Positions 7,639 through 33,790 are shown, counted from the first letter of the stretch. The stretch is DNA of 64,000 nucleotides from Gammaproteobacteria bacterium (GCA_047611805.1 JBLFWX010000017.1:3703-67702); one strand, 5' to 3'. A program made the numbers and translations. Notes: generated by a model not told the origin, from the letters alone.

Positions 7639-7642
7639 AGCG

Positions 7643-15109: not shown

Positions 15110-17464
15110 CCAGTGAATCTGGTGCGGCGCGATTGCCGATAAAGTGATGTCAGGCAGATTGCGACGCCAATCATTAGCAACCAAGTCTCGGGTTCAGGAA
15201 CCGTCGGTACGGTCGCAACTGCGCCTGCCTGCAAGCCCGCTTCGTCATACTGTGCTTGCGTTTCCAGCACGATCGCACTCGTCGCTGGAGTGACTAGCTG
15301 ATAGTCCATGCCGAGTTGTTGTGCGCGGTCGTTGGAATCTTCGTCGCCGGTGTTCAAGAGCTGCATGACGGATTCGTACGCCCACAATCGATCTAGATGA
15401 AACGAAGTTTCCTGACCTGCTTGCGATGCTATGAATGGCCCCCGGCCCCGTAACCTTCGTTCGCTGGAGCGTATAGCGCGGTGCGGCTCCGGACTTTTTT
15501 TGAAACAAACGATCGATCGCCTGCTTGCTGTCACCGTAAGTAGGGAGTGCGCGAAAATTGAGATCACAAGCAAACACTTCCCGCAAACGGTTAGGCCCAC
15601 TGACTAGCTGTACTGCAATTATCGGAGTCCGTTTGCTCACCAAAGCGTCAAGAGAAGCCTGGCTAGTATTCACGCCAAACAGGAGATTTTGCGGCCCATG
15701 CAGCCAAAGCACGGCGCAGTTGGAATGTCGCTCCGCTATTTCTAACGCTGATCGCAGCGCGGCTGAGTTATCCATGCCGCCGACGAACGCAACGTCGGCA
15801 AGTAGTAAGGCAAGGTCGTCGGACCTCGATGTCTGGTGCCCATCAATAGCAAAGACTTCATCGCTTGCAATAATGATTGATAGCGCGATCGATGGTGGTG
15901 TTTGTCGCACCAGGTCAATAAGCCATTGTCGATGCGCGGCCATAGCTCGTGAGCCATCGATAACTAAGACAACGTGGTCGATCGCCGCCCGGGTTTGTTC
16001 TAACGTTTGTGTGATGTAGCTTGTCGGTCCCGCGCGACCGCTGCTAGTCCAAACACTCAAGCTATTCGGTTTACGCTTTATCTGAATACTCATCGGCGTC
16101 GCGTCAATCAGTGAACGGCTTAGATCGCCTGCGATAGCTGATGCATCGCTCTCCGGATCCGACGTTACTAGCCCCGGCGTTGGGCTATCTAATGGCCAGA
16201 GAGATTCGGCGTGTACGCTGTGCGCCGTGGACTCGGGGATCGCAAAATTACGCTCTAGGATCTCCGGTAGCTTGATCCACGCAGTTCCGAGATCGGCCAC
16301 ATCGAGCGGCGTTGTTATCCCGATCCGAAATTTCATTTCGCCTCCGCGCGCCGGAACCGGAAACAATTGTACGAGCACCGAATCTGGCCCATTGTGGGTG
16401 ACGAGAATGGGATCACGGCGTGCTCGTACGACTTTCTCATACGCCGAACGTACTTGTCCGCGAGCGCCGAATGCCGCCTCGCGCGGCTCTCCATCGACCC
16501 ACAAACTAACGCGACTGACGACCGCCCCTGGCGGTAATTGAAATTGAAAGCGTGCTTGTGCTAGCCGCTCGGAATCGTTCTGCACTGCTATAGTCCATTC
16601 GAGATAAGCTAGGAGCGTGTCCGGTTCGATCGCGACTTCGAGATCTGAGTCGCGTAAATAGAGATCCTCATTACGCTGCCCAACCACATCGCCACCTTGG
16701 TTTGGATCGAATCCCGTAAATACGAGACTTGCGGGACGTGGTTGAGCGTTGAACGTATCGCCAGTCACCTGGTAGTAAATTTCCCGCGCAGTGTTGCTCG
16801 AGATCGGGCGGTAGAGTGCGAGAGCGTTACTCAGAATATCTGCGCCGCGGCCGCTGCGGTCATAGCAGGCGCTAAGCATGATTGGTTCGCTACCAAAAGC
16901 GCGCAGCAGTTTTATACCGCGGATTTTTACGCTTACGTGAGTAGATCCCGCCATTTGTAGACCTAGTTGAGTGACGACTGACCGAACTTCTAGCATCACC
17001 AGGATTGCGAATCCTAGAATAATCGCAGGCCACGCCCTCCCGCCTGTCTGCGTGAGGGCAGGTTGAGCTAGTTTGAGTGCACGGCACGAACGTAAGCGCA
17101 CGACCAACGAACAGATCGGTGCCAGTGGCAGTAATCCGAGCAACACAACAATGCCGACGATGCCGATCGGCACAAGCGGCAGAAACAGGATGGAATAAAA
17201 CAGCGCGATACCGATTATGACTGCATTCACACGCAAAAGAGCCACATGATTCCCTCAATTTTTAGGCTTTAGACTCCACCAGATTGCGAGGTTTGATAAA
17301 GGAACCAGTGCGACCAAGGCTACATGGGCCAGTGTCGGGATGGGATCGAAGAATGTTAAAGCGCACTGCTTAGTGAGCAACTCGTAGATTAATGCCGCAC
17401 TCGGCTGGATAACGCCGCAGAGTAAGGTGAAGAATATTTTTAGAAAAGTTCTCATTGCCAGCAC
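15103..17464 (-). pseudogene. polytopic N-terminus + VIT + vWA + PEP-CTERM exosortase target, interrupted by one in-frame TGA and one frameshift
   Basis: Three ORF pieces: 17464-17255, 17245-15245 and 15600-15103. Pieces 1 and 2 share a frame and are separated by TGA at 17255-17257. Pieces 2 and 3 switch frame in the G/C run at 15437-15450. VIT motif LPPGAVVSRVSLWVDGEPREA...RDPILVTHNGPDSVLVQLFPVP; vWA motif VVLVIDGSRAM. Confidence 0.7.
15106..15201 (-). other. PEP-CTERM sorting signal encoded at the 3' end of the VIT-vWA gene
   Basis: The C-terminal peptide VPEPETWLLMIGVAICLTSLYRQSRRTRFTGC has the PEP motif, a TM helix and an Arg-rich tail. Confidence 0.8.
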
Positions 17465-17471
17465 CCGTCAA

Positions 17472-18311
17472 CTATTCAGATTCCAGTAGCGTGTAGGCGC
17501 GAGCGCGCGACATGTTCCAATCCCGCCAGTTGCCCTCGTTGATCCATCGCGGATGATGGGTCATCTGTTGGATAAAGGTCGCAGCACTAGGTTTCGTGTC
17601 GTTTGAGAAATGCGCTAGAAGAACAGGGACGGCATCGCTACTCAATGACAGGAGATAGCGTTCATCGATCCGACTTGTATTGGCTAGGTGGTCGATATTC
17701 GTCCGCGCAATGAAAGCATCGGGGTTGACGATAAATAATAAGCCGATGGCGATAAGCGCTGAGTAAATCACGCCTGATTAAAACTGATGCGGGGTATCGA
17801 ATAAGCTCGTCCGACAGAACAAAAAATAGATCAGGCCGAGCCAAATCATGAATGCGCTAGTGTAGAAACGCAGTTCCGTTAAGCCGTACGCTTGCGTGTA
17901 CAGCTGCATGCGATGCATTGCGGATGCGACAATCACAAGCACCATGCCAACAAGCCCAGCGGCGAGCAGCCTATAAACACGCAAACTTGTGGTGTTTGCG
18001 CTTCTTAACAACCATCGAGCGACTATCAACAGCGGGATAAGTAAGCAAGACAAAAATACGAGCTCGAAGAAACCACGTCTCGCGTAGGTCGCGTAGCTCA
18101 ACGATCCGGATTGTCTAACCAAGGCATCGTCACCGAAAAAAGAACTTAGCTGGATCATGATGTAGGCGAAGAACAAGACATTCAGCGAGGCAAGTACTAT
18201 CGATATCTCGATACCGCCGAGCGTCCAATGCCGGTGTGCGATCGCACGGTGTTGTTCGGTTTGCGGCGTTGCGCCGCAGGATTTCCGACGAACCGACGCC
18301 GCCACTCGCAT
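17472..18311 (-). pseudogene. DUF4153/DUF4173-like polytopic membrane protein; 5'-truncated and carrying an in-frame TAA
   Basis: ORFs 18311-17778 and 17771-17472 share a frame and are separated by TAA at 17778-17780. The C-terminal ...IDERYLLSLSSDAVPVLL... resembles DUF4153 as I recall it. The N-terminal half is missing, and the 5' end runs into the antisense of the kinase gene. Confidence 0.45.
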
Positions 18312-19345
18312 CTAATGAGCCGTGGTGCGAACATTAGAGTCTTCGTCGCCATGCCGATCGTCCACGAGCATCGCCTAATTGGTGCAGTGATGCTTTCTCG
18401 AACACCGCTTGATATAAGCAAAGCGCTATATGCGCAGCGTGGTTTGTTGCTGGGGAGCGCTGTCGGTTTGCTTGCACTCGTATTTGCTATGTCGCTCTTT
18501 ACGTCGATTACGATCCGGCGTCCGATCGCAGCACTTATCGAGCAAAGTCGGCGTGCAGTGCGCGGCGAACGTGGTGCGGTGATTCCATTATCCAAGCCAG
18601 TCACGGCAGATATTGCAGTCCTCTCGGCAGCGCTCGCGAAAATGGCAAATAGTTTGGAAGAGCGGGCAAATACGATCCAACGCAGCGGCACCACATCTCG
18701 CACGAATTCAAGACGCCCTTAACTTCCATACTTGGCAGCATCGAACTCATGCGCGATCACGGCGGTTCGATGAGTTCCGAGCAACGCTTACGATTTCTAA
18801 ACAACTTAGAAGAAGACTCGAAAAGGTTGGAACATTTGCTGCGCAGTTATCTTGACCTCGCCAAGGCGGAAGCGATTCTCGATCCGAGTGGCTCAAGCGA
18901 ACTCAACGCGTCGATTGAGTCGTGCATGCAGCGTTATCGTGCGCGCGGCTTGAGTGTCGAATTTAGCGGACCGACGACGTCGATCGGGCTCGCGATCAAC
19001 GACGAAGCCTGAGACACGGTGCTGTCGAATTTGCTTGACAATGCTGTGCAACACGCAGGTGTTGATTGCGCGGTTCGCATCACGGCAGAAATACTTCCTA
19101 CGGATGATCACGAACATGTTCGAATCACAGTTGCAGACAACGGTCCGGGAATTTCATCAGGCAACCGCGAACATACTTTTCAGCTATTTTTTACCACCGC
19201 GCGTGCAACCGGTGGAACAGGACTCGGGCTCGCGCTCGTGCAATCATTGCTGAAAGCCTATCGAGGCACTATCGAGTTAGTTTCATGTGAACAAGGGACG
19301 ACGTTCAGTATCGTTGTACCATTGGCTGATCTGAGCACGAACTGA
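18228..19345 (+). pseudogene. sensor histidine kinase (TM-HAMP-HisKA-HATPase); 5'-truncated, frameshifted and carrying an in-frame TGA
   Basis: The HAMP region is in frame 0 up to about 18685. The H-box HHISHEFKTPLTSILGSIELM is in frame 2 from 18686. TGA at 19010-19012 interrupts ...NDEA*DTVLSNLLDNAVQH (N-box). The G-boxes DNGPGI and GGTGLGLALV are present. Recognisable homology starts only at about 18315. Confidence 0.75.
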
Positions 19346-22007: not shown

Positions 22008-23162
22008 ATGGATGACATATCGCCGAACACACCCACTGTCGACGCGGATGGACATGTGCTTGAGCCGCGCGACACGTGGATTAAATACTTGCCTTCGAAG
22101 TACCGGGACCGCGCCATCCGCATCGAACGCGACCAAGCAGGTGACGAAGTCTTGTTGTTCGACGGCAAACCCCTCGAAGTAGCGCGCAATCGGCTCGCGA
22201 CCTTAGGTGGTGTGGATATGGACCCAAACGAAATCTTGCGACCCGGGCGCTATTCTTATGAAGACGGCTGTCCGCCGGGCGGCTACGATCCGGCCGCGCG
22301 GCTGAAAGTGATGGATGCCGAAGGCATCGACGTAGCCTTGCTTTATCCGACGATTGGTATCTGTTGGGAAGGGCACGTCTGTGATCCTGAGCTAGCCCAC
22401 GCCTACACAGAAGCGTACAACCGCTGGTTAGTGGATTTTTGCAGCGCGGCACCAAAGCGACTAGTGCCAGTGGCCCACATCAACCTACTCGACATCAAGC
22501 TTGCAGTCGCAGAGTTGCAGCGCGCTCACGCAGCTGGATGTCGGGGCGTCTACATTTCACCGGATTTGTTTGCTCGTGGGCACAAGCGATTCGACGATCA
22601 TTACTATGACCCCTTCTGGGCGGCGGCGGCAGAACGAGGATTACCGATCGCATTTCATGTGGTCGTGCGTGATCAAGCAACGACGACTTACGTCGATCCT
22701 TATAATGGCGGAGGCATTAGCTTCGGCCTACTCAATTTTGCGTTTCTGGCGATCGATGTGATGGGCGCTTTTACGGAGCTTCTGTCTGCGGGTGTATTAG
22801 AACGATTCCCAAACCTCAAAGTCGCGGTGTTAGAGACCGGCGCGAATTGGATCTCTGCATGGCTCGATCGTCTCGACCATAAGTATGAAGTTATTCGTTC
22901 AGTCACGCGTTTGAATATGAAACCGAGCGATTACTTTCGACGCCAGTGCCTAGTGTCCGCGGATCCGGATGAATCGATGACTGCAGAAATCGTTCGACAT
23001 GTCGGCGCAGAGTATTTCGTATGGGCTTCCGATTATCCTCATATCGATGCGTCGATGGGCGTGGTGACCGAAATGCGCCAGCATTTAGCGGTGCTACCAC
23101 GGGCTGATCAGCAACTTGTCATGGGCGGCAACGCAGTACGCTTTTACGGCTTAGACACATGA
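22008..23162 (+). CDS. amidohydrolase-2 family metal-dependent hydrolase/decarboxylase
   Basis: 384 aa. N-terminal DADGHVLEP, ...VWASDYPHIDA... near the C-terminus, and a TIM-barrel amidohydrolase pattern. Confidence 0.75.
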   Translation: MDDISPNTPTVDADGHVLEPRDTWIKYLPSKYRDRAIRIERDQAGDEVLLFDGKPLEVARNRLATLGGVDMDPNEILRPGRYSYEDGCPPGGYDPAARLKVMDAEGIDVALLYPTIGICWEGHVCDPELAHAYTEAYNRWLVDFCSAAPKRLVPVAHINLLDIKLAVAELQRAHAAGCRGVYISPDLFARGHKRFDDHYYDPFWAAAAERGLPIAFHVVVRDQATTTYVDPYNGGGISFGLLNFAFLAIDVMGAFTELLSAGVLERFPNLKVAVLETGANWISAWLDRLDHKYEVIRSVTRLNMKPSDYFRRQCLVSADPDESMTAEIVRHVGAEYFVWASDYPHIDASMGVVTEMRQHLAVLPRADQQLVMGGNAVRFYGLDT

Positions 23163-23277
23163 GTTCGAAACATCATCTGTGGAAATCAAAACCTCGTTTC
23201 TTGAATCGGCCTGGCTAGTTTCACCTAGCGGGGCGTAGGCCGCGAGCCAAGGCCAACATTCGACACCCCGATACCGA

Positions 23278-23295
23278 CCTCGTGCGAACGACTAA
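23278..23295 (-). repeat. partial third copy of the TTAG(G/T)CGTTCG(T)CACGAGG motif, inverted
   Basis: The reverse complement reads TTAGTCGTTCGCACGAGG: 17 matches, 1 mismatch and a 1-nt gap against the 19-nt copy-1 core. It lies just left of the cassette array. Confidence 0.4.
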
Positions 23296-23473
23296 AAGAG
23301 CCGACCCGCAAGGTTCCGTACGGACACTCCCGACGCGAGGTTTCTAATACAATCCAATTCGAGACCGCTTACGCACGCAAATGCGTGAAAAAAGCGTCGC
23401 CGCGACGGACTATTTTTTACAGATCCGAGATTTAATTTTAAAATTAGAAGCTTACGTGCAAATTGCCGATCCG

Positions 23474-23633
23474 ATATATACGTCACCGCGACGCAATTCC
23501 CAGATTGGATATTTCCCCCGAGAGTGCGTAACCGCTTGATTAAAGGGAAACAACGACATACGGTGCGAATATCAAAAATAAAATCAACCGTCGCGGATAT
23601 TACGTCGCGGTGACGTTGATACAGCTGTTAGGT
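23474..23633 (+). repeat. possible degenerate left-most attC, or an attI-like remnant
   Basis: The 14-nt perfect inverted repeat ACGTCACCGCGACG (23480-23493) pairs with CGTCGCGGTGACGT (23604-23617). GTTAGGT follows at 23627-23633. No convincing R'' box. Confidence 0.3.
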
Positions 23634-23643
23634 GGCTCGAGAA

Positions 23644-24120
23644 ATGCAGATGAACTGGGATGCACTCGGAGCAATCGCAGAACTGGTAGGTGCGATCGCT
23701 GTCGTTGCGACATTATTCTACTTGGCCGCACAAATTAAGCAGAATGGACGAATGGTGAGATCGACCATCAGGGAGCAGCGCTTTGGTGCGAATCAAAGTC
23801 TATTGGTAAAAATGGCGGACGAAGCGGAGCTGTACACTAAGCTCGAGAAGCAAGAAAAGTTAACGGATATTGAGTTAACACGAGCAAGCCTACTAATCCG
23901 GGCTTCGTTCAGACTTTGGGAATCCAGCGAGTATCAATACCGCAACCGGGTACTCGAAGCCGAAGAGTGGAGAGGGCTTCGCGAGTCAATCCGAAATAGA
24001 ATTGGCGCATCTTCGTATCATCGACAGTTTTGGGCGGATCACAAGAGTGAATTTTCAGAACATTTCCAAAATTGTGTCACTGAGCTTCTCAGCCAAAGCG
24101 ACACTAAGAGTTCTAATTGA
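23644..24120 (+). CDS. cassette protein, membrane-anchored family of unknown function (paralog 1)
   Basis: N-terminal NWDALGAIAELVGAIAVVATLFYLAAQIKQN is a TM helix followed by a helical domain ending ...FWADHKSEFSEHF. It is homologous to the next cassette and to the cassette at 25228. Confidence 0.6.
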   Translation: MQMNWDALGAIAELVGAIAVVATLFYLAAQIKQNGRMVRSTIREQRFGANQSLLVKMADEAELYTKLEKQEKLTDIELTRASLLIRASFRLWESSEYQYRNRVLEAEEWRGLRESIRNRIGASSYHRQFWADHKSEFSEHFQNCVTELLSQSDTKSSN

Positions 24121-24137
24121 AATGCAACACGATCGCC

Positions 24138-24234
24138 ACCTAACAAAACGATCAACGCCGACGCTTGACCGCTCCTTCTCTGCGCTGCCGCTCCAGTCGG
24201 TCGCCGTCAAACGCAGCTGAACATAGCGTTAGGT
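24138..24234 (+). repeat. attC site 1
   Basis: R'' ACCTAAC at 24138-24144 and R' GTTAGGT at 24228-24234. The arms are internally complementary, and the central motif is GCGCTGCCGCTCC. Confidence 0.8.
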
Positions 24235-24242
24235 GTTGTGAG

Positions 24243-24728
24243 GTGAATTTGAACTGGGATGCGCTAGGTGTTGTCGTCGAGGCTGTCGGTGCTATTGGCG
24301 TAATAGTTTCGGTTTTCTATTTAGCGATCCAGATCCGTAAGCAAACAACGGAAGCACAACTTGCCGCTACTCGAGACCTTGCACGGTTTAATAACGAAAT
24401 AGCAGAGTCGATATCATCGGATCGTGAACTTTTAAAAGTCTATCTTAAAGGCGCATCGGACTACGATTCACTTTCAGACGAAGATCGACTCGTGTTTGGT
24501 TTCTTTATATCTCGCGGAATGAGGTTGCAAGAGCAAATATTCCTACATTCAACGCATGAAAATTTACACGCTTCATTTTACGAATCAATACGGGCACGTC
24601 TCACAGAGCAGTTAGCGCTATCCGGCGTGAGACGATGGTGGGAATTAAATAAGAACGCCTTCTCATCCGACTTCCGAAGATACATCGCGGCAGAGCTTGG
24701 TGAAGAAGATCATTCGCAACACCATTAG
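24243..24728 (+). CDS. cassette protein, membrane-anchored family of unknown function (paralog 2)
   Basis: GTG at 24243. VNLNWDALGVVVEAVGAIGVIVSVFYLAIQIRKQ...RRWWELNKNAFSSDF. The ORF-track start at 24165 lies inside attC 1. Confidence 0.6.
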   Translation: MNLNWDALGVVVEAVGAIGVIVSVFYLAIQIRKQTTEAQLAATRDLARFNNEIAESISSDRELLKVYLKGASDYDSLSDEDRLVFGFFISRGMRLQEQIFLHSTHENLHASFYESIRARLTEQLALSGVRRWWELNKNAFSSDFRRYIAAELGEEDHSQHH

Positions 24729-24745
24729 TGAACAAACATGGCAAC

Positions 24746-24843
24746 ACCTAACAAGTCGCTCGAGACCGACGCTTGACTGCGGCCTCACCTGCGCTACCGC
24801 TCCGGTCGGCCCCAATCAAGCGCGGCTCAGCTCGGCGTTAGAA
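24746..24843 (+). repeat. attC site 2
   Basis: R'' ACCTAAC at 24746-24752 is complementary to the cassette start TTAGGTGTTG. R' GTTAGAA at 24837-24843. Confidence 0.8.
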
Positions 24844-25124
24844 GGCTCTGTATTTAATTGTGATCGGCAGTCTGAAAACGCAATGCGAAAATTAAGTCGC
24901 TCGGTCGGACAGCTCATCCAGTTCCTATAATCAGAAGCTTCGAACTTGGAGCCGTCAGAAGTTTGCAACAGAAACCCAACAACTCGCCGTCGCCACGGAT
25001 TGCTAGTAGGTAACAAGGGCGCTAGATTGAATACTATGAGAGAAAACAGCAGATGCCATCGTCAAGTTAAAGCCGCCACCAAAGTGTCGGCAACGCGGTT
25101 TCGTTGTGGTCCCGGGGTTCGCCG

Positions 25125-25220
25125 TTCTAACCAGTCGTTCAACCTGACCGTTGACAGCGTCCTCCTTTCGCTGCCGCTCCAGTCGTTGCCGTCAACGGCA
25201 GGTTAACTCAAACGTTAGGT
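25125..25220 (+). repeat. attC site 3
   Basis: R'' TTCTAAC at 25125-25131 pairs with the cassette start TTAGAAGGC. R' GTTAGGT at 25214-25220. Arms: GTTCAACCTGACCGTTGACAGCG and GCCGTCAACGGCAGGTTAAC. Confidence 0.8.
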
Positions 25221-25227
25221 GGCTGTC

Positions 25228-25797
25228 ATGACGCTAACCGAGTTTGCCAGCATTGCTGAGATTGTGAGCGCGTTCGGCGTAATTGCGACCCTAATATTCC
25301 TAGCGGTGGAGTTGCGAAAAAATACGACAGCAACCCGACAACAGAGTTATCACAATATTGTGAGTCGCCGAGCGACTTTGTTTCATGAAGGGATCTCCAA
25401 GGATAGAGAAAGTATTAGTATATTCGCTAAGGGCTTAAACGCCGGAGACCTTGACGAGCTAGACTCACAGCGATTTCTTACATCGATGATCAATGTACTT
25501 TCCCATTTCCAGGATGTTCATACACAGTCCCGGTCCGGAATAGTTGAATATGAAGTTTGGGCGGCAGAAAGACAGATTCTTGCAGGATTCTCCGGTCAGC
25601 CCGGTTTCGAAAAATTTTGGCGCGAAGCGCAGCAGTATTTTCTTCCTGAATTCATAAAGGAAATGTCAGAAATAGAGCCCATAAATTTAGTCGTCTACGA
25701 TCCGGAAACTCATGACTGGGGGCGTCCAGGCGGCGTGTATCTAGACACAACGAAATCGAAGGCTGGAAATGGTAATGCAAATTCACCAGCCACCTAA
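25228..25797 (+). CDS. cassette protein, membrane-anchored family of unknown function (paralog 3)
   Basis: MTLTEFASIAEIVSAFGVIATLIFLAVELRKN...FEKFWREAQQYFLPEF. The TAA stop lies inside R'' of attC 4. Confidence 0.6.
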   Translation: MTLTEFASIAEIVSAFGVIATLIFLAVELRKNTTATRQQSYHNIVSRRATLFHEGISKDRESISIFAKGLNAGDLDELDSQRFLTSMINVLSHFQDVHTQSRSGIVEYEVWAAERQILAGFSGQPGFEKFWREAQQYFLPEFIKEMSEIEPINLVVYDPETHDWGRPGGVYLDTTKSKAGNGNANSPAT

Positions 25798-25887
25798 CAA
25801 GTTGTTCAACCTGACCGATGACAGCGTCCTCGCTGCGCTACCGCTCCACTGCGGGACTATCAACGGCAGGTTAACAAGACGTTAGAT
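25792..25887 (+). repeat. attC site 4
   Basis: R'' ACCTAAC at 25792-25798 and R' GTTAGAT at 25881-25887. The 5' arm TAACAAGTTGTTCAACCTGACCGATGACAGCG pairs imperfectly with the 3' arm CGGGACTATCAACGGCAGGTTAACAAGACGTTA. Confidence 0.85.
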
Positions 25888-25899
25888 TGCATTTAACCG

Positions 25900-26274
25900 A
25901 TGGGGCGACCGAAAAGAAATCGACATTGGCTGCGTGCAATCCAAAGGGCATACGAGCGCGCGCAAAACGCTGTTGCCCGTGGGGAAATCGCGAAATTGGA
26001 TATTCACCGACTGGCGCCGCGACTTGCTGCAAAAGAAAGACGATTTAACGACTCGAATGAAATCGAAACAATGATCGACGCCACAGTCACGGCAGTAGAA
26101 GAAGAAGCGCGAATCGACGAGGAAGCTCGGGGTAAAATCAAATTTCACTTCGTGTCAGCTTACGTCTTTGCTCACGTACATATGGAGCACCTTGAAGAGC
26201 TGGAAGCAGATCGCTTAATGGATTATCTAAATGAATCGTGGGACCTGTTCGATGAAAACGAGCTTGCAATCTAA
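25900..26274 (+). CDS. cassette protein of unknown function (124 aa, acidic C-terminus)
   Basis: It fills the cassette between attC 4 and attC 5. The TAA stop lies inside R'' (GCAATCTAAC). No family recognised. Confidence 0.5.
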   Translation: MGRPKRNRHWLRAIQRAYERAQNAVARGEIAKLDIHRLAPRLAAKERRFNDSNEIETMIDATVTAVEEEARIDEEARGKIKFHFVSAYVFAHVHMEHLEELEADRLMDYLNESWDLFDENELAI

Positions 26275-26376
26275 CCAGGGGATCAAGCTGACCATCTACA
26301 GCGCGCTTCTCCGAAGTGCAGATATTTTCGCATCGAAAAAGCTGCCTGTAATCTGCAGGTTATCCCAACGTTAGAC
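26269..26376 (+). repeat. attC site 5 (second sequence class)
   Basis: R'' ATCTAAC at 26269-26275 and R' GTTAGAC at 26370-26376. The arms CTAACCAGGGGAT and ATCCCAACGTTAG are complementary. The interior is unrelated to attC 1-4. Confidence 0.75.
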
Positions 26377-26405
26377 CGTAATAGATAAACATACGTCAAT
26401 GACGT

Positions 26406-26732
26406 ATAGTTCAACTTAGGTTAACGCTCGTCGAAACACCGCTATTCACGCGGTTGCTGTCAGATTATCTATCCGATGACGAATACTGGGAACTGCAATC
26501 TGCGTTAAGTGCAGCGCCGGAATCAGGAGCGGTCGTTCCTGGATCTGGTGGGGTACGTAAATTGCGTTGGTCTATGTCCGGACGTGGTGAACGCGGAGGA
26601 CTTCGTGTGATTTACTAGTTACGAGTAGGCCGCGAGGAAATATGGATGCTTACGCTCTATCCTAAGAATGTAACGGACAATATCCCGGCTCACATTCTGA
26701 GAAAGATCCGAGAGGAAATTGAAAATGTCTAA
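26406..26732 (+). pseudogene. RelE/HigB-2-like toxin gene with an in-frame TAG and no usable start codon
   Basis: Frame 0 reads ...LVETPLFTRLLSDYLSDDEYWELQSALSAAPESGAVVPGSGGVRKLRWSMSGRGERGGLRVIY*LRVGREEIWMLTLYPKNV.... The TAG is at 26616-26618. The 3' end overlaps the antitoxin start. Confidence 0.65.
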
Positions 26733-27006
26733 TAAAGAAAAAGTCCGAGATATCGGGATGGAGATTTTGGAGGGGATCGGACAGATCAAAGCAGGCAAAA
26801 TTGCGCGTATTACTCAGTTCCCACCCATATCGGAAATACGCGAGGGAGTCGGCTTATCGCAATCGGAGTTCGCCAAACTACTCGGCGTTTCGGTTCGGAC
26901 ATTGCAAGAATGGGAACAAGGTCGCCGCACGCCATCGGGCCCGGCCAGAACGCTATTGGCCATTGCACATAAGAATCCCCGTGCATTATTAGAAGTCGCG
27001 GTCTGA
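26725..27006 (+). CDS. XRE-type HTH antitoxin (HigA-2/NadS-like)
   Basis: MSNKEKVRDIGMEILEG...GLSQSEFAKLLGVSVRTLQEWEQGRRTPSGPARTLLAIAHKNP. The TGA stop lies inside the R''-like GTCTGAC. Confidence 0.8.
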   Translation: MSNKEKVRDIGMEILEGIGQIKAGKIARITQFPPISEIREGVGLSQSEFAKLLGVSVRTLQEWEQGRRTPSGPARTLLAIAHKNPRALLEVAV

Positions 27007-27068
27007 CAAGTTGTTCAACCTGACCAATGACAGCGTCCTCGTTACGCTGCTGCTCAACGTAGCGACGG
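27001..27068 (+). repeat. attC site 6, 5' half only (truncated)
   Basis: GTCTGACAAGTTGTTCAACCTGACCAATGACAGCGTCCTCGTTACGCTGCTGCTC matches the left arm of attC 4. The right arm and the R' box are absent, and the sequence runs straight into the middle of higB. Confidence 0.6.
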
Positions 27069-27069
27069 T

Positions 27070-27213
27070 ATGAATGTCCCCGGTTTTCGCTTGCACTGCC
27101 TAACGAAAATGCAGCGAGAACGTTGGTCTATAACCGTCAATGGAAATTGGCGATTAACATTCGAATTCCGCGACGGCGATGTCAATCTGCCGGATTACGA
27201 GGACTACCACTAA
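27070..27213 (+). pseudogene. higB: HigB (killer protein) toxin; only the C-terminal 47 codons remain
   Basis: MNVPGFRLHCLTKMQRERWSITVNGNWRLTFEFRDGDVNLPDYEDYH corresponds to the C-terminal half of ~92-aa HigB proteins. TAATG overlap with higA. Confidence 0.7.
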
Positions 27214-27503
27214 TGAATATGCATAACCCACCGCACCCCGGAGAGTTCATTCGGGACATCTATCTGGAGCCGTTCGAGCTGAGTATCAGAAGTCTTTCGG
27301 AAAGTCTTAGCGTATCTGCATCCACGTTAACTCGAGTAGTAAATGGCCAAAGTGGCGTCAGTCCCGAGATGGCATTACGGTTATCGAAAGCCATCGGACG
27401 CTGGCCAGAAAGTTGGCTTGCGATGCAGCACAATTACGATCTGTGGCAAGTCCGACAATCACTAGATTTATCCCATGTTACATCGGTCGAATTTGCCGCT
27501 TAA
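27213..27503 (+). CDS. higA: HigA antitoxin (XRE HTH, VapI type)
   Basis: MNMHNPPHPGEFIRDIYLEPFELSIRSLSESLSVSASTLTRVVNGQSGVSPEMALRLSKAIGRWPESWLAMQ. The TAA stop lies inside R'' of attC 7. Confidence 0.8.
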   Translation: MNMHNPPHPGEFIRDIYLEPFELSIRSLSESLSVSASTLTRVVNGQSGVSPEMALRLSKAIGRWPESWLAMQHNYDLWQVRQSLDLSHVTSVEFAA

Positions 27504-27597
27504 CCGGTTGTTCAACCTTGACCTATGACCGCATCCTCGTCGCGCTACCGCTCACTGCGGCGCGGTCAACGGGGCGTTAGCAAGACGCTAGTTAGAT
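27498..27597 (+). repeat. attC site 7
   Basis: R'' GCTTAAC at 27498-27504 and R' GTTAGAT at 27591-27597. The interior is collinear with attC 4. Confidence 0.8.
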
Positions 27598-27614
27598 TTT
27601 AGGAGGATTAATCC

Positions 27615-27944
27615 TTGTCGTATCTTTATTTGGCCGGCGCCATCATTGCAGAGGTCATCGCAACCAGTGCGTTGAAGTCCTCAGCTGAGTTCACAAAACT
27701 TGGCCCCAGCATCGTTGTATTAATAGGATACGTTTCTGCGTTCTATCTTTTGACGCTGGTCCTTCGCACGATCCCATTGGGCGTCGCGTATGCACTATGG
27801 TCGGGCTTCGGGATCGTCCTGGTCACAATCGCCGGTGCGGCAATATATAAGCAGACACCTGACGCGGCGGCTATCGTCGGAATGGCGTTAATTATTGCGG
27901 GTGCGGCAGTGATACACCTGTTCTCGCGAACCGTCGCGAACTAA
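27615..27944 (+). CDS. SMR-family small multidrug efflux protein (EmrE/QacE-like)
   Basis: 109 aa with 4 TM helices and the conserved Glu in TM1 (AIIAEVIATSALK). A strong SD TAGGAGGA lies 8 nt before the TTG start. Confidence 0.85.
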   Translation: MSYLYLAGAIIAEVIATSALKSSAEFTKLGPSIVVLIGYVSAFYLLTLVLRTIPLGVAYALWSGFGIVLVTIAGAAIYKQTPDAAAIVGMALIIAGAAVIHLFSRTVAN

Positions 27945-27970
27945 GACGCGAGATAATGGATGAATAAGAA

Positions 27971-28058
27971 ATGTAACCGGTTGTTCGGCCTCACCGATGA
28001 TAGTGTCCTCGCGGCGCTACCGCGACGGGGTCAACGGGAGGTTAAAGATGCGTTAGGT
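27971..28058 (+). repeat. attC site 8
   Basis: R'' ATGTAAC at 27971-27977 and R' GTTAGGT at 28052-28058. Confidence 0.8.
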
Positions 28059-28112
28059 TCGCGGTCCTTTGTTGAATTAACGGATAGAACATAGAAAAGC
28101 GATTAACATTAA

Positions 28113-28956
28113 AAAAGCGGTTACGTCGTTTGGACCGATACGGTAGGTCACGGGACTGGGCTGCCACTTCTATTGCTTCATGGTGGGCCGGGAGCGGGGC
28201 ATGACTATCTGGAGCCACTCAAGGCGCTTGCTGATGAACGCTCGGTCATATTCTATGATCAGTTAGGGTGCGGGAAATCCGACATTCCTGATAACAAAGC
28301 GCTTTGGACAATTGAACGCTTCGCTGACGAAGTTGATGAAGTGCGCGAATTGCTCAAGCTCGAACGTTGCCACATCTTGGGGCAATCTTGGGGCGGCTGG
28401 TTAGGTTTAGAATATATGTTGCGGAAACCGACAGGTTTAGCGAGTTTTGTACTCGCATCAACGTCTGCGTCAATTCCTCAGTTTTCGAAGGAGTGCGAAC
28501 GTCTTATAGCAGACCTACCGCAAGCGCACCAAACAGCACTACGCCATTATGGCGATCTGGGTGAATTCGACCATCCGGATTATTCTGTCGCCGAAGAGGT
28601 TTTTGATCGACGTCATCTGTGTCGTTTGGATGATTGGCCAGATTGCATGATGCGCTCTATTGAAAACCTACACCACACTCCGGTCTATGAAGCTATAAAT
28701 GGTCCGAACGAGTTCACGACGATAGGTAATCTTCGATATTAGGATCGCACTGAGGACTTACCCGAAATAAGCTTTCCCGCCTTAATTACTTGTGGCCAGT
28801 TCGACGAGCTCGGACCGCAATGTGCTCGAACCCGTCTTGCCGGGATCCCAAACTCAGTTATGGAGGTATTTGAACACTCGGCACATGTTCCGCACATCGA
28901 ACAGATGTGCCAAGTACGTTGAATGCGTACGAAGGTTTTTGCACCTTCATGACTAA
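28113..28956 (+). pseudogene. proline-iminopeptidase-like alpha/beta hydrolase cassette gene with nonsense and frameshift lesions
   Basis: HGGPG oxyanion motif and GQSWGG nucleophile elbow. An in-frame TAG at 28740-28742 sits where a conserved Trp is expected (GNLRY*DRTEDL). A frame change at about 28905-28912 precedes ...KYVECVRRFLHLHD*. No start codon upstream of the TTG at 28173. Confidence 0.75.
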
Positions 28957-29093
28957 CGAACGGTATCGCCGCTTGTGTCGCACCTATGAAAGCGCCCCTA
29001 ACTAGGCAACGGGATGCAACGTTTGATGGCGCATTTTCCTTCGGTCCCGCTTGGGTCAGCCGTCGTCAAGCACGGTTTATCGCGTCGTTAGGT
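28951..29093 (+). repeat. attC site 9 (long form)
   Basis: R'' GACTAAC at 28951-28957 contains the corrected-frame stop. R' GTTAGGT at 29087-29093. CTAACGA and TCGTTAG are complementary. An alternative R'' is CCCTAAC at 28996. Confidence 0.55.
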
Positions 29094-29146
29094 GCTCCCG
29101 AGTACATCATGCGAGTATTGATAAAATTAGAGCGAAACTCGACCTT

Positions 29147-29272
29147 ATGGGGAATCACCAGCCGACGCAGAAATGCGACCGTTGCAGGTTGCTACATCTG
29201 ACGGACTTGGAGAACTGTCCGCATTGCGGTGACTTAAATAGCTGTTCCGAATTGTCGATCACTTCGCGCTAA
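29147..29272 (+). CDS. small Cys4 zinc-ribbon cassette protein (41 aa)
   Basis: MGNHQPTQKCDRCRLLHLTDLENCPHCGDLNS.... The TAA stop lies in an R''-like CGCTAAC. Confidence 0.35.
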   Translation: MGNHQPTQKCDRCRLLHLTDLENCPHCGDLNSCSELSITSR

Positions 29273-29350
29273 CCACACGACTAATAAACAAACGGGACCT
29301 CTCGACTTTTGCGGCCGTATTGGCCTGGAATACGGGCCTTAGCGTTAGTA
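29267..29350 (+). repeat. attC site 10 (degenerate)
   Basis: R'' CGCTAAC at 29267-29273, the complementary TTAGCG, and GTTAGTA at 29344-29350. The internal pairing is weak. Confidence 0.4.
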
Positions 29351-29638
29351 AATGGATTGCCACTGTCGGTTGGCACTTGTAAAGAAGCGATATTTCCGCG
29401 CGCCTCATAATTTAGATCAGCTATGTTAGATGAAGAGGGATTTAAAAAATTCTTGAAAACAACCGACAATCAATACGAATCTAACAGCGAATTGAGGCTT
29501 CTATTTGCGGCTATCGCAAGGTTGATATTAACGAGCCCTATTGCTTTGTCGCAGATTAATTTTTCGTTGCCGTAGTCGAGACAGACCAAGCAACTAGATC
29601 CCCATGGGTAATGCAGCAGCCCTCTAATCAAAGCCTCA

Positions 29639-29762
29639 ACTTAACCGCTTGCAGGCGCGCTTTTCGCGCTAAGGTCACTATCTTTGTCTCAAAAAGCACG
29701 GCGTTGGGCCGCGGCGAATTAACCCTGAACTTGCACACGATAGCTGTAAACCGCAGTTAGCT
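29639..29762 (+). repeat. attC-like site 11 (degenerate)
   Basis: ACTTAAC at 29639-29645 and GTTAGCT at 29756-29762. The arm complementarity is poor. Confidence 0.3.
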
Positions 29763-29817
29763 AGCTGAAAAACCCCAGCAAACATGGACGCAAAAGAAAA
29801 GATCAGTAAACAGCTTC

Positions 29818-30117
29818 GTGTATGTTTGGGAAAGCGTAGGAAAATCTGCGCGAATACCCATTTCAACTAAAGGTTGTCCCTGCGAGCAAGATACTGTGAA
29901 AGAGTTCTTGAATCATCGCTTTAGATACTCGGTATTCTTCTGCAGCGTGCTTTTGCTTTATTTAGTTGCGAACGGTCTCGAAAAGCCGGCAGGTTCGAAT
30001 CCGCTGTTTATTGGGTTGTCGATTTTCTTTGTTTGCGCAATTATGGGAACCATTGCTGCTGGGTTCGAATGGGCGATTCGCCGACGAAAAGCTGGGAAGA
30101 AGTGTTTTCAATCGTGA
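29818..30117 (+). CDS. small two-TM cassette protein; start uncertain (GTG 29818 or GTG 29896)
   Basis: ...YSVFFCSVLLLYLVANGL...LFIGLSIFFVCAIMGTIAAGF.... No family recognised. Confidence 0.35.
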   Translation: MYVWESVGKSARIPISTKGCPCEQDTVKEFLNHRFRYSVFFCSVLLLYLVANGLEKPAGSNPLFIGLSIFFVCAIMGTIAAGFEWAIRRRKAGKKCFQS

Positions 30118-30247
30118 ATAAGAATATACAGCTGCCGCCTTGCAAGCCACCCGAGACGGACCCCCTACAGCGCGCTTTTCCAACGTTGCTGCGCAGCATC
30201 ACATTCCCAAAGCGGTCTACATCGGGCAGCTTAGCTTTGCATTAGGT
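30118..30247 (+). repeat. collapsed or degenerate attC of the second class
   Basis: CTACAGCGCGCTTTTCCAACGTTGC (30165-30189) joins the centre of an attC-5-like site directly to its right end (compare ...CTACAGCGCGCTTCTCC...ATCCCAACGTTAG). A further ATTAGGT lies at 30241. Confidence 0.3.
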
Positions 30248-30274
30248 GCTCAAACATTGATCGCAACGTACACA

Positions 30275-30679
30275 ATGAAACTTCGGCTCGCCGATCGAAT
30301 ACTTGTCCTCATTGTTTTTCCGATTTTTGTACTTTGCGGCGCGTTCATGTTCTATCGCTCCGCAGTGCAAGGCGATATAGGAGAGATGGGGTTTACGGTG
30401 ATTTGGTTGGCCTTCGTCGCTTGGACGTTTTGGGGAGTGTTCTCTGGACCGGTAGAGATTCAGGTGCTGACAGATTCACGGGTACGGTTCCGGTCTTGGT
30501 TTCGCGTCGAAAATGAAACGCTAATGAGTGAAATTCGAGAACTTGAGCTCATAGGAAATATTCTTTGGATCACTACGGTGACCCGCAAGTACACAACGTT
30601 GAGCGGTTTCAATGGGTTAAGTGAATTTATTCATGAGATCGCGGCGAGCAACGAAAAACTTGTCGTCAAAGGGATGTAG
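30275..30679 (+). CDS. membrane protein with two N-terminal TM helices and a PH-like C-terminal domain (cassette)
   Basis: MKLRLADRILVLIVFPIFVLCGAFMFY...GFTVIWLAFVAWTFWGVF is followed by a beta-rich ~70-aa domain. The bacterial-PH-like assignment is tentative. Confidence 0.45.
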   Translation: MKLRLADRILVLIVFPIFVLCGAFMFYRSAVQGDIGEMGFTVIWLAFVAWTFWGVFSGPVEIQVLTDSRVRFRSWFRVENETLMSEIRELELIGNILWITTVTRKYTTLSGFNGLSEFIHEIAASNEKLVVKGM

Positions 30680-30949
30680 AGCGAAGATGCACTTAGATCA
30701 ATAGGCGAAGTGCAACACCTGGAATGATATGACTCATAAAATTCCTTCGGAATTATAGTGTCGAGTATTTTTCTAGGACGTGCGCCGAGTATCCCAGCGA
30801 TAGCATCGCACTACCGCTGAGTTACCTTAGCCATCGATCTTCTCGCCAGAACGAACAATACTGCGTAATTTATCGGTTCGACAACGACAATGTCTGCGTG
30901 CAAGTCGTACGAGTATCCGCGCACCATTGCGTCACTGAGGTATCAAGTC

Positions 30950-31312
30950 ATGGGGTGGTTGTCAGATCTTTTGAAGGAATATCCCGCGCTATCGGTTGAG
31001 ACAGAGCGCCTCGCGTTGATGGAGGCGGAGAATAAAAAACAAAAAATGGAGGATGGTGCACTTCAAAATGAACGTCACGCGGAACAAAAACGACAACGAT
31101 TCAGGGAGTTCAAGGGCGTGCTTTGGACGGAGCACAACGGCAAAATCGATCCAACTGTCTATTGCCCGTATTGCGAGTTCGCAATGGCAGTTATTCTATC
31201 CGGAACTAGCGAAATGATAGTTTGCTCCAAATGTAATTTCATCGCTTCGTTTCAAGCAAAAGAAATTGAAAATTTGACTCGGTCACTTGAAACGGAACTG
31301 CGCTCGTTGTGA
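30950..31312 (+). CDS. coiled-coil plus Cys4 zinc-ribbon cassette protein of unknown function
   Basis: MGWLSDLLKEYP...charged helix...CPYCEFAM...CSKCNF. The ORF-track start is 30890. Confidence 0.45.
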   Translation: MGWLSDLLKEYPALSVETERLALMEAENKKQKMEDGALQNERHAEQKRQRFREFKGVLWTEHNGKIDPTVYCPYCEFAMAVILSGTSEMIVCSKCNFIASFQAKEIENLTRSLETELRSL

Positions 31313-31321
31313 ACGATCTGC

Positions 31322-31350
31322 AATCTAGCAAGCTTATCCCAACGTTAGGT
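31322..31350 (+). repeat. internally deleted attC (second class)
   Basis: GCAATCTAGCAAGCTTATCCCAACGTTAGGT joins the R''-like box of attC 5 (GCAATCTAAC) directly to its right end (TTATCCCAACGTTAG). Confidence 0.45.
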
Positions 31351-31352
31351 GG

Positions 31353-31508
31353 GTGAGGAAATCAGTTCGGAATATCAATCGAACAACGGGTGCCGGTGCG
31401 CTGGCGGACTTCATCGATGTCGCCGCATCGGATTTCGAGGATGTGTTGAGACGAGTTATCGATAAAAACCGAAAGCTATCTCGTCGGTTTAGTTGGTGCG
31501 CTACATAA
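31353..31508 (+). CDS. putative Phd-position antitoxin (51 aa)
   Basis: A GTG start right after the cassette boundary. Its 3' end overlaps a Doc-like reading frame by 13 nt. No motif support. Confidence 0.3.
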   Translation: MRKSVRNINRTTGAGALADFIDVAASDFEDVLRRVIDKNRKLSRRFSWCAT

Positions 31509-31618
31509 CGCTTGGTGAAGTTTTAGCGCTGCATACTCGAATGCTGGAGCAATCCGGCGGTGCTACGCAGGTTCAAGGGTTCGACGGAAAAGCATCCGCC
31601 GTATTGCAATCCCAATAG
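31496..31618 (+). pseudogene. doc: Doc (death-on-curing) toxin; N-terminal ~40 codons only
   Basis: (M)RYITLGEVLALHTRMLEQSGGATQ... resembles the Doc/Fic N-terminus (..LT.eevl.iH..l.e.sGG). The frame terminates long before the HxFx(D/N)GNKR motif. Confidence 0.45.
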
Positions 31619-31764
31619 GACGAGTTGCCGCGTACTGTCAGCTGTTGGCCCATGGCAGGGCATAACATACCCATGCACACCAAGAACATGGTTGCTAAGC
31701 GACCATCTTTGTGCCGATGCGGGGCATTAGCTTGCTAGTTAGAAATCAAATGTACCTGCTCAAT

Positions 31765-31781
31765 TCCTAACTGGGTTAGTG
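31765..31781 (+). repeat. minimal palindromic R''-tgg-R' site at the right end of the array
   Basis: TCCTAAC tgg GTTAGTG. Confidence 0.3.
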
Positions 31782-31868
31782 GGTGGCAAAGGGAGGCTAA
31801 TTACGTTGGCGGCGTCCGCGCATCTTTACTCGCGCTGTCGATTCGGTTTCCCGCGCTCCTGGCCAGAA

Positions 31869-33275
31869 CTAGGATCGGTTTGCCCAGGGATAGGGGCGAG
31901 TTCCGAGGCGCGATCGTAGAGTTGGGCCTTCGAACTCCGTACGGAAGCGGCCGCGCCGCTGAAGTTCTGCGAGAACCGGCGCGAACTCATCGATCGAACC
32001 AGGCATGTGCACAGTGGAGAACATAAATCCATCGCAACCCTCGCTATCCACGATCTGCTCCAACTGATCGGCGACCTGTTGGATGGTTCCTACAACTTTC
32101 GGAACGATCGATTGGGCATTTGCCACGCACAGATCGCGAACAGTAGGTTCTTCGACATGTGGGTACGCGTACAGATGTGGGGTCTGATTTGCCGCATCCG
32201 CCGAACTCGCCATCGTAAGTTCGAATATGGATTGGATACCGCCGAAATCCTTGGGATCCAAGTCGGAAAGTTTTGTGTCGAACGGAACCTGCGCGAAATT
32301 GAAACAGGCGTAGCCCGAGCACCACGCCAAGCCGGCCTCTGCCGTGGCCAACTCGATCAGCTGCTCATACTTTTCCTTGGCTGCGGCCTCTGAGCTGCCG
32401 ACAATTGGGAAGATTCCGCTTAGGATCGCAAGATCAGACTCCCGCCGACCCTCGTTGGCGACACGGTCCTTCACGTCGCGGTAGTAGGCCTGCATGGCCG
32501 GGAGATCCGGGCTGATGGTGAACACTCCTTCTGCGTGCCGGGCAGCGAATTGCCTTCCTCTGGGTGACTGACCCGCTTGGAAAAGTACTGGGATCTCCTG
32601 CGGCGAGCGGGGCAACTGAAGCGGACCACGGCACTGAAAGTATTCTCCTTGGAAGTTGATCTCGTGAACCTTGTCGGGATCGGCGAACAGCGGTTGATCG
32701 GGATCACGAACTAAGGCGTCCGTGTCCCAGCTCTGCCAGAGCGAATAACAGATCTGCATGAATTCTTCGGCCCGTTCGTATCTGGCGTCATGCTCGCGTA
32801 CCTCGGTCCCGAGGTTGTCGGCCAGCCCCCCCGGGTTAAGACCGGTCACGATGTTAAAGCCGACGCGTCCCTTCGTAAGGTGATCCATGGTCGATGCCAT
32901 TCGAGCAAACGTCCAAGGGTTCAATTCTTCAGTGTTGACCGTCGACACAGCGCCTAGCTCGGGCGCCATCGCTGCCACCATGGACACGAATTGCGGGGCA
33001 AAGAACTCAAGGGTCTGACTGCCGTAGCGCAGGGATGTGGCAGGACTGTTTTCGTTGCTGTTATATATGGCACCACCGTCGCCCACAAAGAATGCGTCGA
33101 CCTTCATCGACTCAAGAGTTTTCGCGACTCTAGCCCAGATTTCCGGCCCCAAGGGATCGTAGATGCCGCCAAGCATCTCCTGCGGGTGGCGCCACCCATC
33201 GGGGTAATGATGTACAAAGGGCGGGAACGTAAAGAGTGTAAAGTGCAACTGCTTCTTAGATTTCTTGGGCGCCAT
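31869..33275 (-). CDS. LLM-class flavin-dependent monooxygenase (NtaA/SnaA/DszA type)
   Basis: 468 aa. N-terminus KKQLHFTLFTFPPFVHHYPDGWRHPQ and a length typical of the family. Confidence 0.85.
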   Translation of the reverse strand: MAPKKSKKQLHFTLFTFPPFVHHYPDGWRHPQEMLGGIYDPLGPEIWARVAKTLESMKVDAFFVGDGGAIYNSNENSPATSLRYGSQTLEFFAPQFVSMVAAMAPELGAVSTVNTEELNPWTFARMASTMDHLTKGRVGFNIVTGLNPGGLADNLGTEVREHDARYERAEEFMQICYSLWQSWDTDALVRDPDQPLFADPDKVHEINFQGEYFQCRGPLQLPRSPQEIPVLFQAGQSPRGRQFAARHAEGVFTISPDLPAMQAYYRDVKDRVANEGRRESDLAILSGIFPIVGSSEAAAKEKYEQLIELATAEAGLAWCSGYACFNFAQVPFDTKLSDLDPKDFGGIQSIFELTMASSADAANQTPHLYAYPHVEEPTVRDLCVANAQSIVPKVVGTIQQVADQLEQIVDSEGCDGFMFSTVHMPGSIDEFAPVLAELQRRGRFRTEFEGPTLRSRLGTRPYPWANRS

Positions 33276-33790
33276 TAGTTTCTCCGGCTACTTCGGTTGC
33301 TTTAGCGCCGAGATCCCTTTTCACCGGGGCGCCGGCGGTCTGTCTGTCGCGCCGGTTGCTACGAGGCCGTTTAGGTTGAATCAGGCCGCGGGGGGCGATT
33401 CTGTCCCCTGCTAGGAACGCCCATTCTCTTTGTAGACGAACGGAATGTCACGTAGTAGTTCCAACGACATCCAACTATCACGGCGCTCCCAGGTAAGCCG
33501 CTCGAATTTGAGCGCCTCGAACTGCAGCCAGAGAACGGGCCGTATCGGACTAATTTGCGGTTTCCCCCGCCGGCGATCGGCAGTGGATTCGGATCAGTGA
33601 CGTTACTGTTATGGGGCTGGTTATTATCGGATCTGCTCTTTCAATAATGCTTCCTAAGCGCGATCACCACGGCGCGAGTTGAAACCGGACGATATCAAAA
33701 CCAAGGTTTCAACTGGCCACGTCGAATTCACGCCCTCGAGGATTAGCCCCGCGACCTAAACCTAGGAGACGGTTTGTTTTCGCGCTAAGC

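Follow-up and report, generated by a model that had tools for sequence, protein, structure and literature searches.

A probable integrase-less array of gene cassettes in an uncultured aquatic (gamma)proteobacterium

The window, as we call the whole 64-kb stretch of DNA analysed here (GCA_047611805.1, JBLFWX010000017.1:3703-67702), belongs to the chromosome of an uncultured aquatic (gamma)proteobacterium. It contains an ~8-kb array of gene cassettes, all oriented in one direction, with an amidohydrolase gene on one side and a luciferase-like/GFA gene block on the other. We describe this array (23627-31790), which with high confidence we regard as a CALIN (cluster of attC sites lacking an integron integrase), that is, attC sites and gene cassettes with no integron integrase nearby. 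Its G+C content is ~49%, against 52-56% in the flanks. Along 22800-32400 one reads through a series of same-strand open reading frames (ORFs), each followed by an imperfect palindrome of ~90-110 nt with the ends ...CTAAC and GTTAG.... As a rule a unit is a single ORF without a promoter, with an attC site behind it. The features are the following:

23416..23444, +, best sigma-70-like promoter match (TTTACA-17-TAAAAT, 10/12 positions), facing the cassettes
23495..23626, +, left junction, non-coding, ending at the first G|TT crossover (G at 23627)
23628..24228, +, cassette 1: ORF 23644-24120 (158 aa, membrane-anchored helical family, paralog 1) and attC1 24138-24234
24229..24837, +, cassette 2: ORF 24249-24728 (159 aa, same family, paralog 2) and attC2 24746-24843
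24838..25214, +, cassette 3: no convincing ORF; attC3 25125-25220
25215..25881, +, cassette 4: ORF 25228-25797 (189 aa, same family, paralog 3, stop in R'') and attC4 25792-25887
25882..26370, +, cassette 5: ORF 25900-26274 (124 aa, stop in R'') and attC5 26269-26376, of a longer-loop subtype
26371..27069, +, cassette 6: relE-like toxin pseudogene 26394-26729, helix-turn-helix (HTH) antitoxin 26719-27006 and 5' half attC 27001-~27069
27052..27591, +, cassette 7: higB fragment 27052-27213, intact higA 27216-27503 (stop in R'') and attC7 27498-27597
27592..28052, +, cassette 8: small multidrug resistance (SMR) transporter gene 27615-27944 and attC8 27971-28058
28053..29087, +, cassette 9: alpha/beta-hydrolase pseudogene ~28104-28920 and weakened attC9 28996-29093
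29088..31790, +, distal decayed part of the array: ~5-6 cassette remnants
29147-29272 (41-aa zinc ribbon), 29818-30117, 30275-30679 and 30950-31312: short distal ORFs, small membrane proteins among them

An attC site consists of the inverted cores R'' (RYYYAAC) and R' (GTTRRRY) bounding an imperfect palindrome of 57-141 nt. Once folded, its bottom strand has R and L stems separated by an unpaired central spacer, with extrahelical base(s) in the L stem, and this structure is better conserved than the sequence. The sites of the window, with coordinates running from R'' to R' on the top strand (the folded strand being the bottom one), are these:

24138-24234, 24746-24843, 25125-25220, 25792-25887, 26269-26376, 27498-27597, 27971-28058, 28996-29093: strong attC sites
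27001-~27069: truncated attC, a 5' half-site
29267-29350, ~29631-29762, 30134-30247, ~30712-30835, 31320-31350 (internally deleted), ~31764-31790: degenerate attCs

The eight strong sites are 88-108 nt long and have both R'' and R' cores. A regex scan for RYYYAAC...GTTRRRY pairs 50-160 nt apart returned 15 pairs in the 64 kb, eight of which fall in the 24-28 kb bin. An earlier note on this DNA had proposed strong and degenerate attC sites in the array and these are present at the coordinates listed, as judged by covariance models and, for some of the distal ones, by eye. It had also described all of them as bounded by RYYYAAC...GTTRRRY, which is true of most cores; four (TTCTAAC, ATGTAAC, GTCTGAC and GTTAGAA) deviate by one base.

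Two covariance models were used. The first, R1, was derived from the eight attC sites of the window itself and is circular when applied to it; therefore a second model, R2, was trained solely on attC sites of other contigs, five located beside the true intI of contig L026 and 26 from the array of contig L034 (see below). In the window R2 found nine sites with E<0.01 and a tenth with E=0.07, all of them on the "-" strand and inside the array:

25789-25890, attC4, 84.5 bits
26266-26379, attC5, 77.8 bits
25121-25223, attC3, 75.1 bits
24135-24237, attC1, 64.1 bits
24743-24846, attC2, 62.9 bits
27495-27596, attC7, 39.6 bits
30134-30250, distal site, 37.9 bits, E=3e-8
27968-28061, attC8, E=0.003 (65 bits with R1)
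28993-29096, attC9, E=0.004
31320-31353, internally deleted distal site, E=0.07

The nine sites with E<0.01, all on one strand, are spaced 0.47-2.1 kb apart (0.47-1.0 kb for the first eight), and in the whole 64 kb R2 gave only one other hit (E=0.4). Apart from 30134-30250 and 31320-31353, the distal degenerate attCs were recognised by eye alone. R1 gave nothing credible outside 24.1-31.4 kb; one "+"-strand R1 hit at 31906-32001, inside the luciferase-like gene (E=0.0015), was dismissed, being absent with R2. Rfam returned zero hits at the gathering threshold or at E<=1, and as it appears to have no attC family this is no test of attC.

Imperfect palindromes downstream of ORFs could also be dispersed elements of the REP (repetitive extragenic palindromic) or MITE (miniature inverted-repeat transposable element) kind, or terminators, with a merely coincidental resemblance to cassettes, and a few of those in the array do overlap terminator-like matches. 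However, such matches are not enriched (14 versus 10.7±3.7), the other 55 kb contain no credible hit on either strand, every real hit is far stronger on the "-" strand than its weak "+"-strand mirror, and the R'' and R' cores stand at fixed spacing. Furthermore, cassette starts match their own R'' and the same attC family adjoins a true intI in L026. The confinement of the repeats to one 8-kb stretch and one strand of the window means that they are not a REP-like dispersed family, and this explanation is effectively refuted. Both checks that bear on it, the attC covariance model (with strong matches even when trained only on sites from elsewhere) and the search for dispersed copies, thus came out in favour of attC.

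The folding of these sites is also that of attC. When the eight bottom strands are aligned they share an outer R stem of 6 bp, an unpaired spacer of 3-5 nt, an L stem with a bulged G (GTT-G-AAC) and an inner variable stem, with compensatory changes at 13 pairs of the eight-site consensus fold. Across 51 members of the family from 11 sources, paired cells make up 89.7%, a share that falls to 31-39% once the 3' partner is slid. Of the 29 stem pairs, 19 show compensatory changes with both sides altered; since this alignment was fitted by the model, the pairing is somewhat inflated. Compared with shuffled sequences, the DNA of attC2-5 folds clearly better (z of -4.0, -3.3, -4.7 and -2.5 respectively), attC1, 7 and 8 marginally so (z about -1.0 to -1.4) and attC9-12 no better, with z +1.1 for attC9 and -0.5 or higher for the distal sites.

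Cassette boundaries tell the same story. Cassettes would be captured singly, as circles, by IntI, the tyrosine recombinase that is expected to cut the attC hairpin (folded from the bottom strand as R box, unpaired spacer, L box with bulged G and variable stem) between G and TT, so that each cassette should begin with the complement of its own R'' box. The earlier note had claimed precisely this, and the signal is statistically real: beyond the GTTAG core, the agreement of cassette starts with their own R'' reaches 4.4 of 7 positions, against 2.3 of 7 with the R'' of other cassettes (permutation p=1e-4), the pattern that circular cassettes recombined at G|TT predict. The start of cassette 1, GTTAGGTGGC, matches its own R'' GCCACCTAAC, and the agreement is 6/7 for cassette 2 and 7/7 for cassette 4. 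Of six ORFs said to have their stop codon inside R'', five could be verified (stops ending at 25797, 26274, 27006, 27503 and 29272); the sixth is an unconvincing small ORF. The complementarity of each start to its own R'' and an attC family that elsewhere abuts a true intI may be read as indirect signatures of IntI recombination at G|TT.

No integrase was found. Pfam searches with all 65 non-overlapping ORFs of at least 90 aa in the 64 kb detected no PF00589, no PF13495 and no transposase, and tblastn in six frames with IntI1, VchIntIA and the L026 IntI as queries gave only noise (best E 0.2-0.6), the 465-bp spacer to the left of the array included. The sequence used as IntI1, which we take to be that protein, was confirmed as an IntI by its match to 2A3V (E=9e-88). 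By these two methods neither intI nor a remnant of it is present in the 23 kb on the left and the 32 kb on the right of the array. Its left neighbour is the amidohydrolase gene, on the + strand and ending at 23162, and no divergent intI, the mark of a complete integron, lies beside the first cassette. The covariance-model, Pfam and tblastn results thus uphold what had been noted from reading the sequence: a cassette array without an integrase in the 64-kb window, with no ORF of tyrosine-recombinase type, no IntI-like frame in the 465-bp left spacer and no intI adjoining the array.

With no integrase and no demonstrable attI or cassette promoter (Pc), the array is therefore a CALIN under the definition of IntegronFinder, which asks for at least two clustered attC sites on one strand, with neighbours <4 kb apart and no integron integrase near (clustering distance 4 kb, 10 kb for pseudogenes; PMC4889954). 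CALINs are common: the 2016 IntegronFinder survey found 279 of them versus 164 complete integrons, 95% had no intI pseudogene nearby (10 kb) and only 6.6% exceeded 10 attC sites (PMC4889954). For RefSeq a catalogue of 2961 CALINs exists (bioRxiv 10.1101/2022.09.11.507474). Like them, the array of the window has well over two attC sites on one strand and <4 kb apart, no intI or pseudogene within 10 kb, and cassettes mostly of unknown function and unrelated to the clinical resistance cassettes. It differs in being bigger than most, with nine model-supported and ~6 degenerate attC sites, and in having an orthologous integrase-less array in a second genome.

Three of the cassettes (1, 2 and 4) encode members of a single family of 150-190 aa with an N-terminal transmembrane (TM) helix (MNWDAIGAIGE..VGA.AVV.SL.YLA.QIRQN) and a helical domain. 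This family is heavily expanded in these arrays, with three copies in the window, 14 in L020, four each in L018 and L013, two in L026 and a presence in L003 as well; one member, in L022, lies outside any array. In the databases it makes up at least 182 clusters, each of them named "hypothetical". Pfam gave no hit either for the protein of cassette 1 or for the family, only 10 of 55 members weakly touching DUF6082 (best E=5.5e-4). The AlphaFold2 (AF2) model is confident (pLDDT 93.3; 93 for cassette 1), with no fold match in PDB and BFVD at E<0.6 and nothing in PADLOC. The six frames of cassette 3 contain short or overlapping ORFs only, and the ORF of cassette 5 matched no family in Pfam, PADLOC or NCBIfam; the unknown cassettes in general had no PADLOC or NCBIfam match. 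The SMR gene of cassette 8 (qac/sugE-like efflux; PF00893, E=4e-28) is the sole cassette gene with a resistance-type annotation.

The toxin-antitoxin (TA) cassettes are damaged. The relE-like pseudogene of cassette 6 has lost its start codon and has an in-frame TAG at 26616-26618, with 87% identity to an intact copy in L003 (tblastn), a contig of the metagenome-assembled genome (MAG) JBLFWZ01; its antitoxin is intact, HTH_3/MqsA-like and 95% identical to the L003 copy. The attC of cassette 6 breaks off after the L'' side and is joined to cassette 7, whose higB retains the C-terminal 53 of ~99 residues, the 5' half having been deleted together with half of the preceding attC. The higA that follows is a clear HigA (TIGR02607, E=2e-31). 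Both antitoxins are 79-95% identical to copies that accompany live toxins in JBLFWZ01, and the two orphans might neutralise paralogous toxins elsewhere in the genome. In cassette 9 the hydrolase (Abhydrolase_1, E=3e-19 on its first part) has an in-frame TAG at 28740-28742 and no start codon. Beyond it the distal attCs are degenerate, deleted or barely recognisable, so that attC quality drops from left to right along the array, as in ordinary integrons, where new cassettes enter at the attI end. Toxin and hydrolase pseudogenes, a truncated attC and eroded distal sites show that the array has partly decayed and that much of it is no longer maintained.

This gradient bears on another possible origin, in which an integrase would have inserted the cassettes at a secondary genomic site (attG) and no adjacent integrase was ever lost. 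Experiments have shown that cassettes can insert outside att sites, and this has been put forward as an origin of SALINs (single attC sites lacking an integron integrase) and small CALINs (bioRxiv 10.1101/2022.09.11.507474), and the 465 bp to the left of the array without an intI remnant and a window without insertion sequence (IS) or transposase would agree with it. We nevertheless consider it very improbable, as ~15 cassettes in the same orientation far exceed the one or two for which that route is proposed, repeated insertion at one point requires an attI-like preferred site, and the cassettes go from fresh (proximal) to old (distal) as in a normal integron.

The same attC family was found elsewhere. 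An identical 8.3-kb contig (L001) is present in JGI metagenome 3300054976. Two GTDB MAGs contain the attC core pattern, on three contigs of Gammaproteobacteria bacterium 3300053785_116 (JBLFWZ01) and on two of Proteobacteria bacterium casp40-mb.114 (JAQCEL01), with covariance-model scores of up to 102 bits. The covariance model exposed as chance all four contigs with exact core-pattern matches in the metagenome collection and six of the 11 matches in the genome collection. Contigs L026, L018, L020 and L034 were reached via homologues of the cassette 4 protein. L026 (ENA ERZ24794640 NODE_17725) is a complete integron with a divergently transcribed intI (467 aa) and then five attC sites. This intI aligns with VchIntIA (2A3V) at E=5.5e-91, the IntI-specific insertion being covered without a gap, and the attC sites belong to the family of the window (62-102 bits with the window-derived model, four of them at 90-102). 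Two cassettes of L026 are homologous to cassettes 4 and 6 of the window (~75% and ~74% nucleotide identity), in the same orientation. It differs from the array of the window in having intI, an attI region of its own unrelated to the left junction, and other flanking genes. L018 and L020 are further arrays without integrase. L034 is a 328-kb contig with an array at its end in which 27 attC sites occupy 16.7 kb. The presence of the attC family in L026, L018/L020 and L034 indicates that it belongs to large chromosomal integrons of this bacterial group.

Some details of these relatives deserve mention. The L026 intI (6635-8038, -) has ~150 residues upstream of the region aligned with VchIntIA, which may represent either a second SAM-like domain at the N terminus or a gene call extended too far, and the attI-side spacer contains a AACATAGATTCTATGTT palindrome. 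In a cluster look-up the L026 IntI was a singleton, with no tie to the genome of the window. Sites or cassettes are found in both orientations in L013 (1363-1465, +, versus 2911-3683, -) and L020 (5551-5667, +, versus 9902-11311, -), indicating inversions within arrays, and a frameshifted IS110-type transposase lies inside one related array (listed with L003 4171-5008).

The closest orthologue of the amidohydrolase (94% aa identity) is found on L031/L032, the latter a contig of MAG casp40-mb.114. The flanks of L031 are colinear with those of the window at 84-88% nucleotide identity, and the interval between amidohydrolase and GFA genes measures ~3.1 kb there, with three attC sites and no called integrase gene. 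Its cassettes (a 72-aa ORF, a 94-aa ORF and a 5'-nucleotidase) differ from those of the window, and what the two loci have in common is the left junction of ~130 bp and the distal cassette at 30928-31092 (84% identity). Being common to both, the integrase-less state and the junction predate the split of the two genomes, so that this state is old and not a recent accident. The turnover of the middle cassettes since then could reflect gain via a trans-acting IntI or differential deletion alone. Window positions 31313-33754, including the luciferase-like gene that abuts the right end of the array, are missing from L031. Luciferase-like genes also border the arrays of L018 (6261-7337) and L020 (20335-20570), which may be a coincidence in genomes rich in that family. 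Other amidohydrolase orthologues (L033, P0025, L037/L038) have non-syntenic contexts and are uninformative on the ancestral state.

Repeats of CGTCGCGG (at 23590 and 23604) and a GTTGAT...GTTAGG pair are found in the left junction, which may be an attI-like or remnant site. Positions 23495-23623 are 78-83% identical to L031 11218-11346, located just before the array there, and the homology stops ~4 nt before the G|TT crossover. We found the junction only at the orthologous L031/L032 locus and not beside the arrays of L018, L020, L026 or L034, and it has no recognised attI signature. The promoter match at 23416-23444 is a candidate Pc-like promoter; promoter-type matches in the region do not exceed the shuffle expectation and this one is not conserved in L031. 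Bracketing it, within the 230 bp upstream of the first cassette, are three copies of a 13-bp palindrome CGTCRC-N-GYGACG (23395-23407, 23481-23493 and 23603-23615; half-site at 23589-23597), which look like operators of a dimeric regulator or integrase-binding repeats. Only the copy nearest to the array is conserved in L031.

Conservation of the junction raises a real if minor possibility, that an IntI encoded elsewhere uses it as an attI-like site and the array is the functional satellite of a split integron instead of a relic. The junction is kept in two genomes whose other intergenic DNA there is not alignable, its homology ends ~4 nt from the crossover, and the cassettes between it and the distal cassette are entirely different. 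The fall of attC quality from left to right is what entry on the left would produce, related MAGs have attC arrays on several contigs and a cognate-type IntI is present in the wider lineage. However, no intI is known from this genome, the first cassette of L031 lacks a canonical GTTRRRY start at the junction, and differential deletion between similar attC repeats could give the same pattern. Both TA cassettes and the hydrolase gene are dead, arguing for relaxed selection, and, going by its sequence, the junction lacks the inverted L/R "simple site" of known attI sites. Rather improbable is the more specific proposal of an "orphan platform", in which the 130-bp junction, kept across ~15% nucleotide divergence, would be the attI-like landing site of a distant IntI and cassettes would still be gained and lost; it would explain why the two genomes share just the junction and the oldest, distal cassette.

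We prefer to see the array as a CALIN that would descend from a sedentary chromosomal integron of this lineage, its integrase having probably been lost, or become separated from the array, before the split of the two related genomes. The left five attCs appear intact enough for excision or recombination, which would require an IntI from elsewhere in the genome or from an incoming element, and the right-hand half is presumably inert and eroding. As the proximal attCs look competent, mobilisation of these cassettes in trans is plausible. Several points weigh against the classification or limit it. Three of the eight "well-formed" sites fold merely marginally better than shuffled sequence, and the formal assignment was made by substitute models, in place of the IntegronFinder attC model and the intI_Cterm profile. 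An intI may exist elsewhere in the genome, the window being part of a source contig of ~104 kb. The junction does not resemble the attI region of L026, the complete integron, and is not demonstrable as an attI, and the cassette differences with L031 could be explained by differential loss without any integrase activity.

Sedentary chromosomal integrons have been delimited as those present in all genomes of a species or having more than 19 attC sites (PMC4889954). With the Vibrio cholerae superintegron (VCR repeats) and the ilvD-linked integrons of Xanthomonas our array shares a lineage-specific and fairly homogeneous attC, a fixed chromosomal place across related genomes with varying cassette content, TA cassettes, a majority of ORFan cassettes and, among the relatives of the window, very long arrays (L034). 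It differs from them in having no adjacent intI or demonstrable attI and in its size, as ~15 cassettes or sites fall short of the 19-site threshold. In one related genome this place is likewise occupied. Another difference is the inactivation of both toxins, which deprives the array of the stabilisation that TA cassettes usually provide.

With this array a well-documented CALIN becomes known from an aquatic proteobacterial lineage that is uncultured, and it can be linked to a complete integron of cognate type and to an orthologous array without integrase. The current understanding of integrons is left unchanged. The window, L026 and L031 together make a small natural experiment on array persistence and erosion after integrase loss, and the expanded membrane-anchored family, with its confident and unmatched predicted fold, is typical of the unexplored integron gene pool.

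As for the surroundings of the array, no tRNA genes were found in the window. By Pfam, the left flank contains paa genes, an aldehyde:ferredoxin oxidoreductase, acyl-CoA enzymes, an amidase and the amidohydrolase, and the right flank luciferase-like monooxygenases, short-chain dehydrogenases (SDRs), a P450, RtcB, an ammonium transporter and glutamate synthase. A 5.2-kb block (14054-19232) that is missing from the otherwise colinear L031 represents an indel unrelated to the array and includes an exosortase EpsH-like gene, a VIT-domain protein, DUF4153 fragments and a histidine-kinase ATPase fragment.

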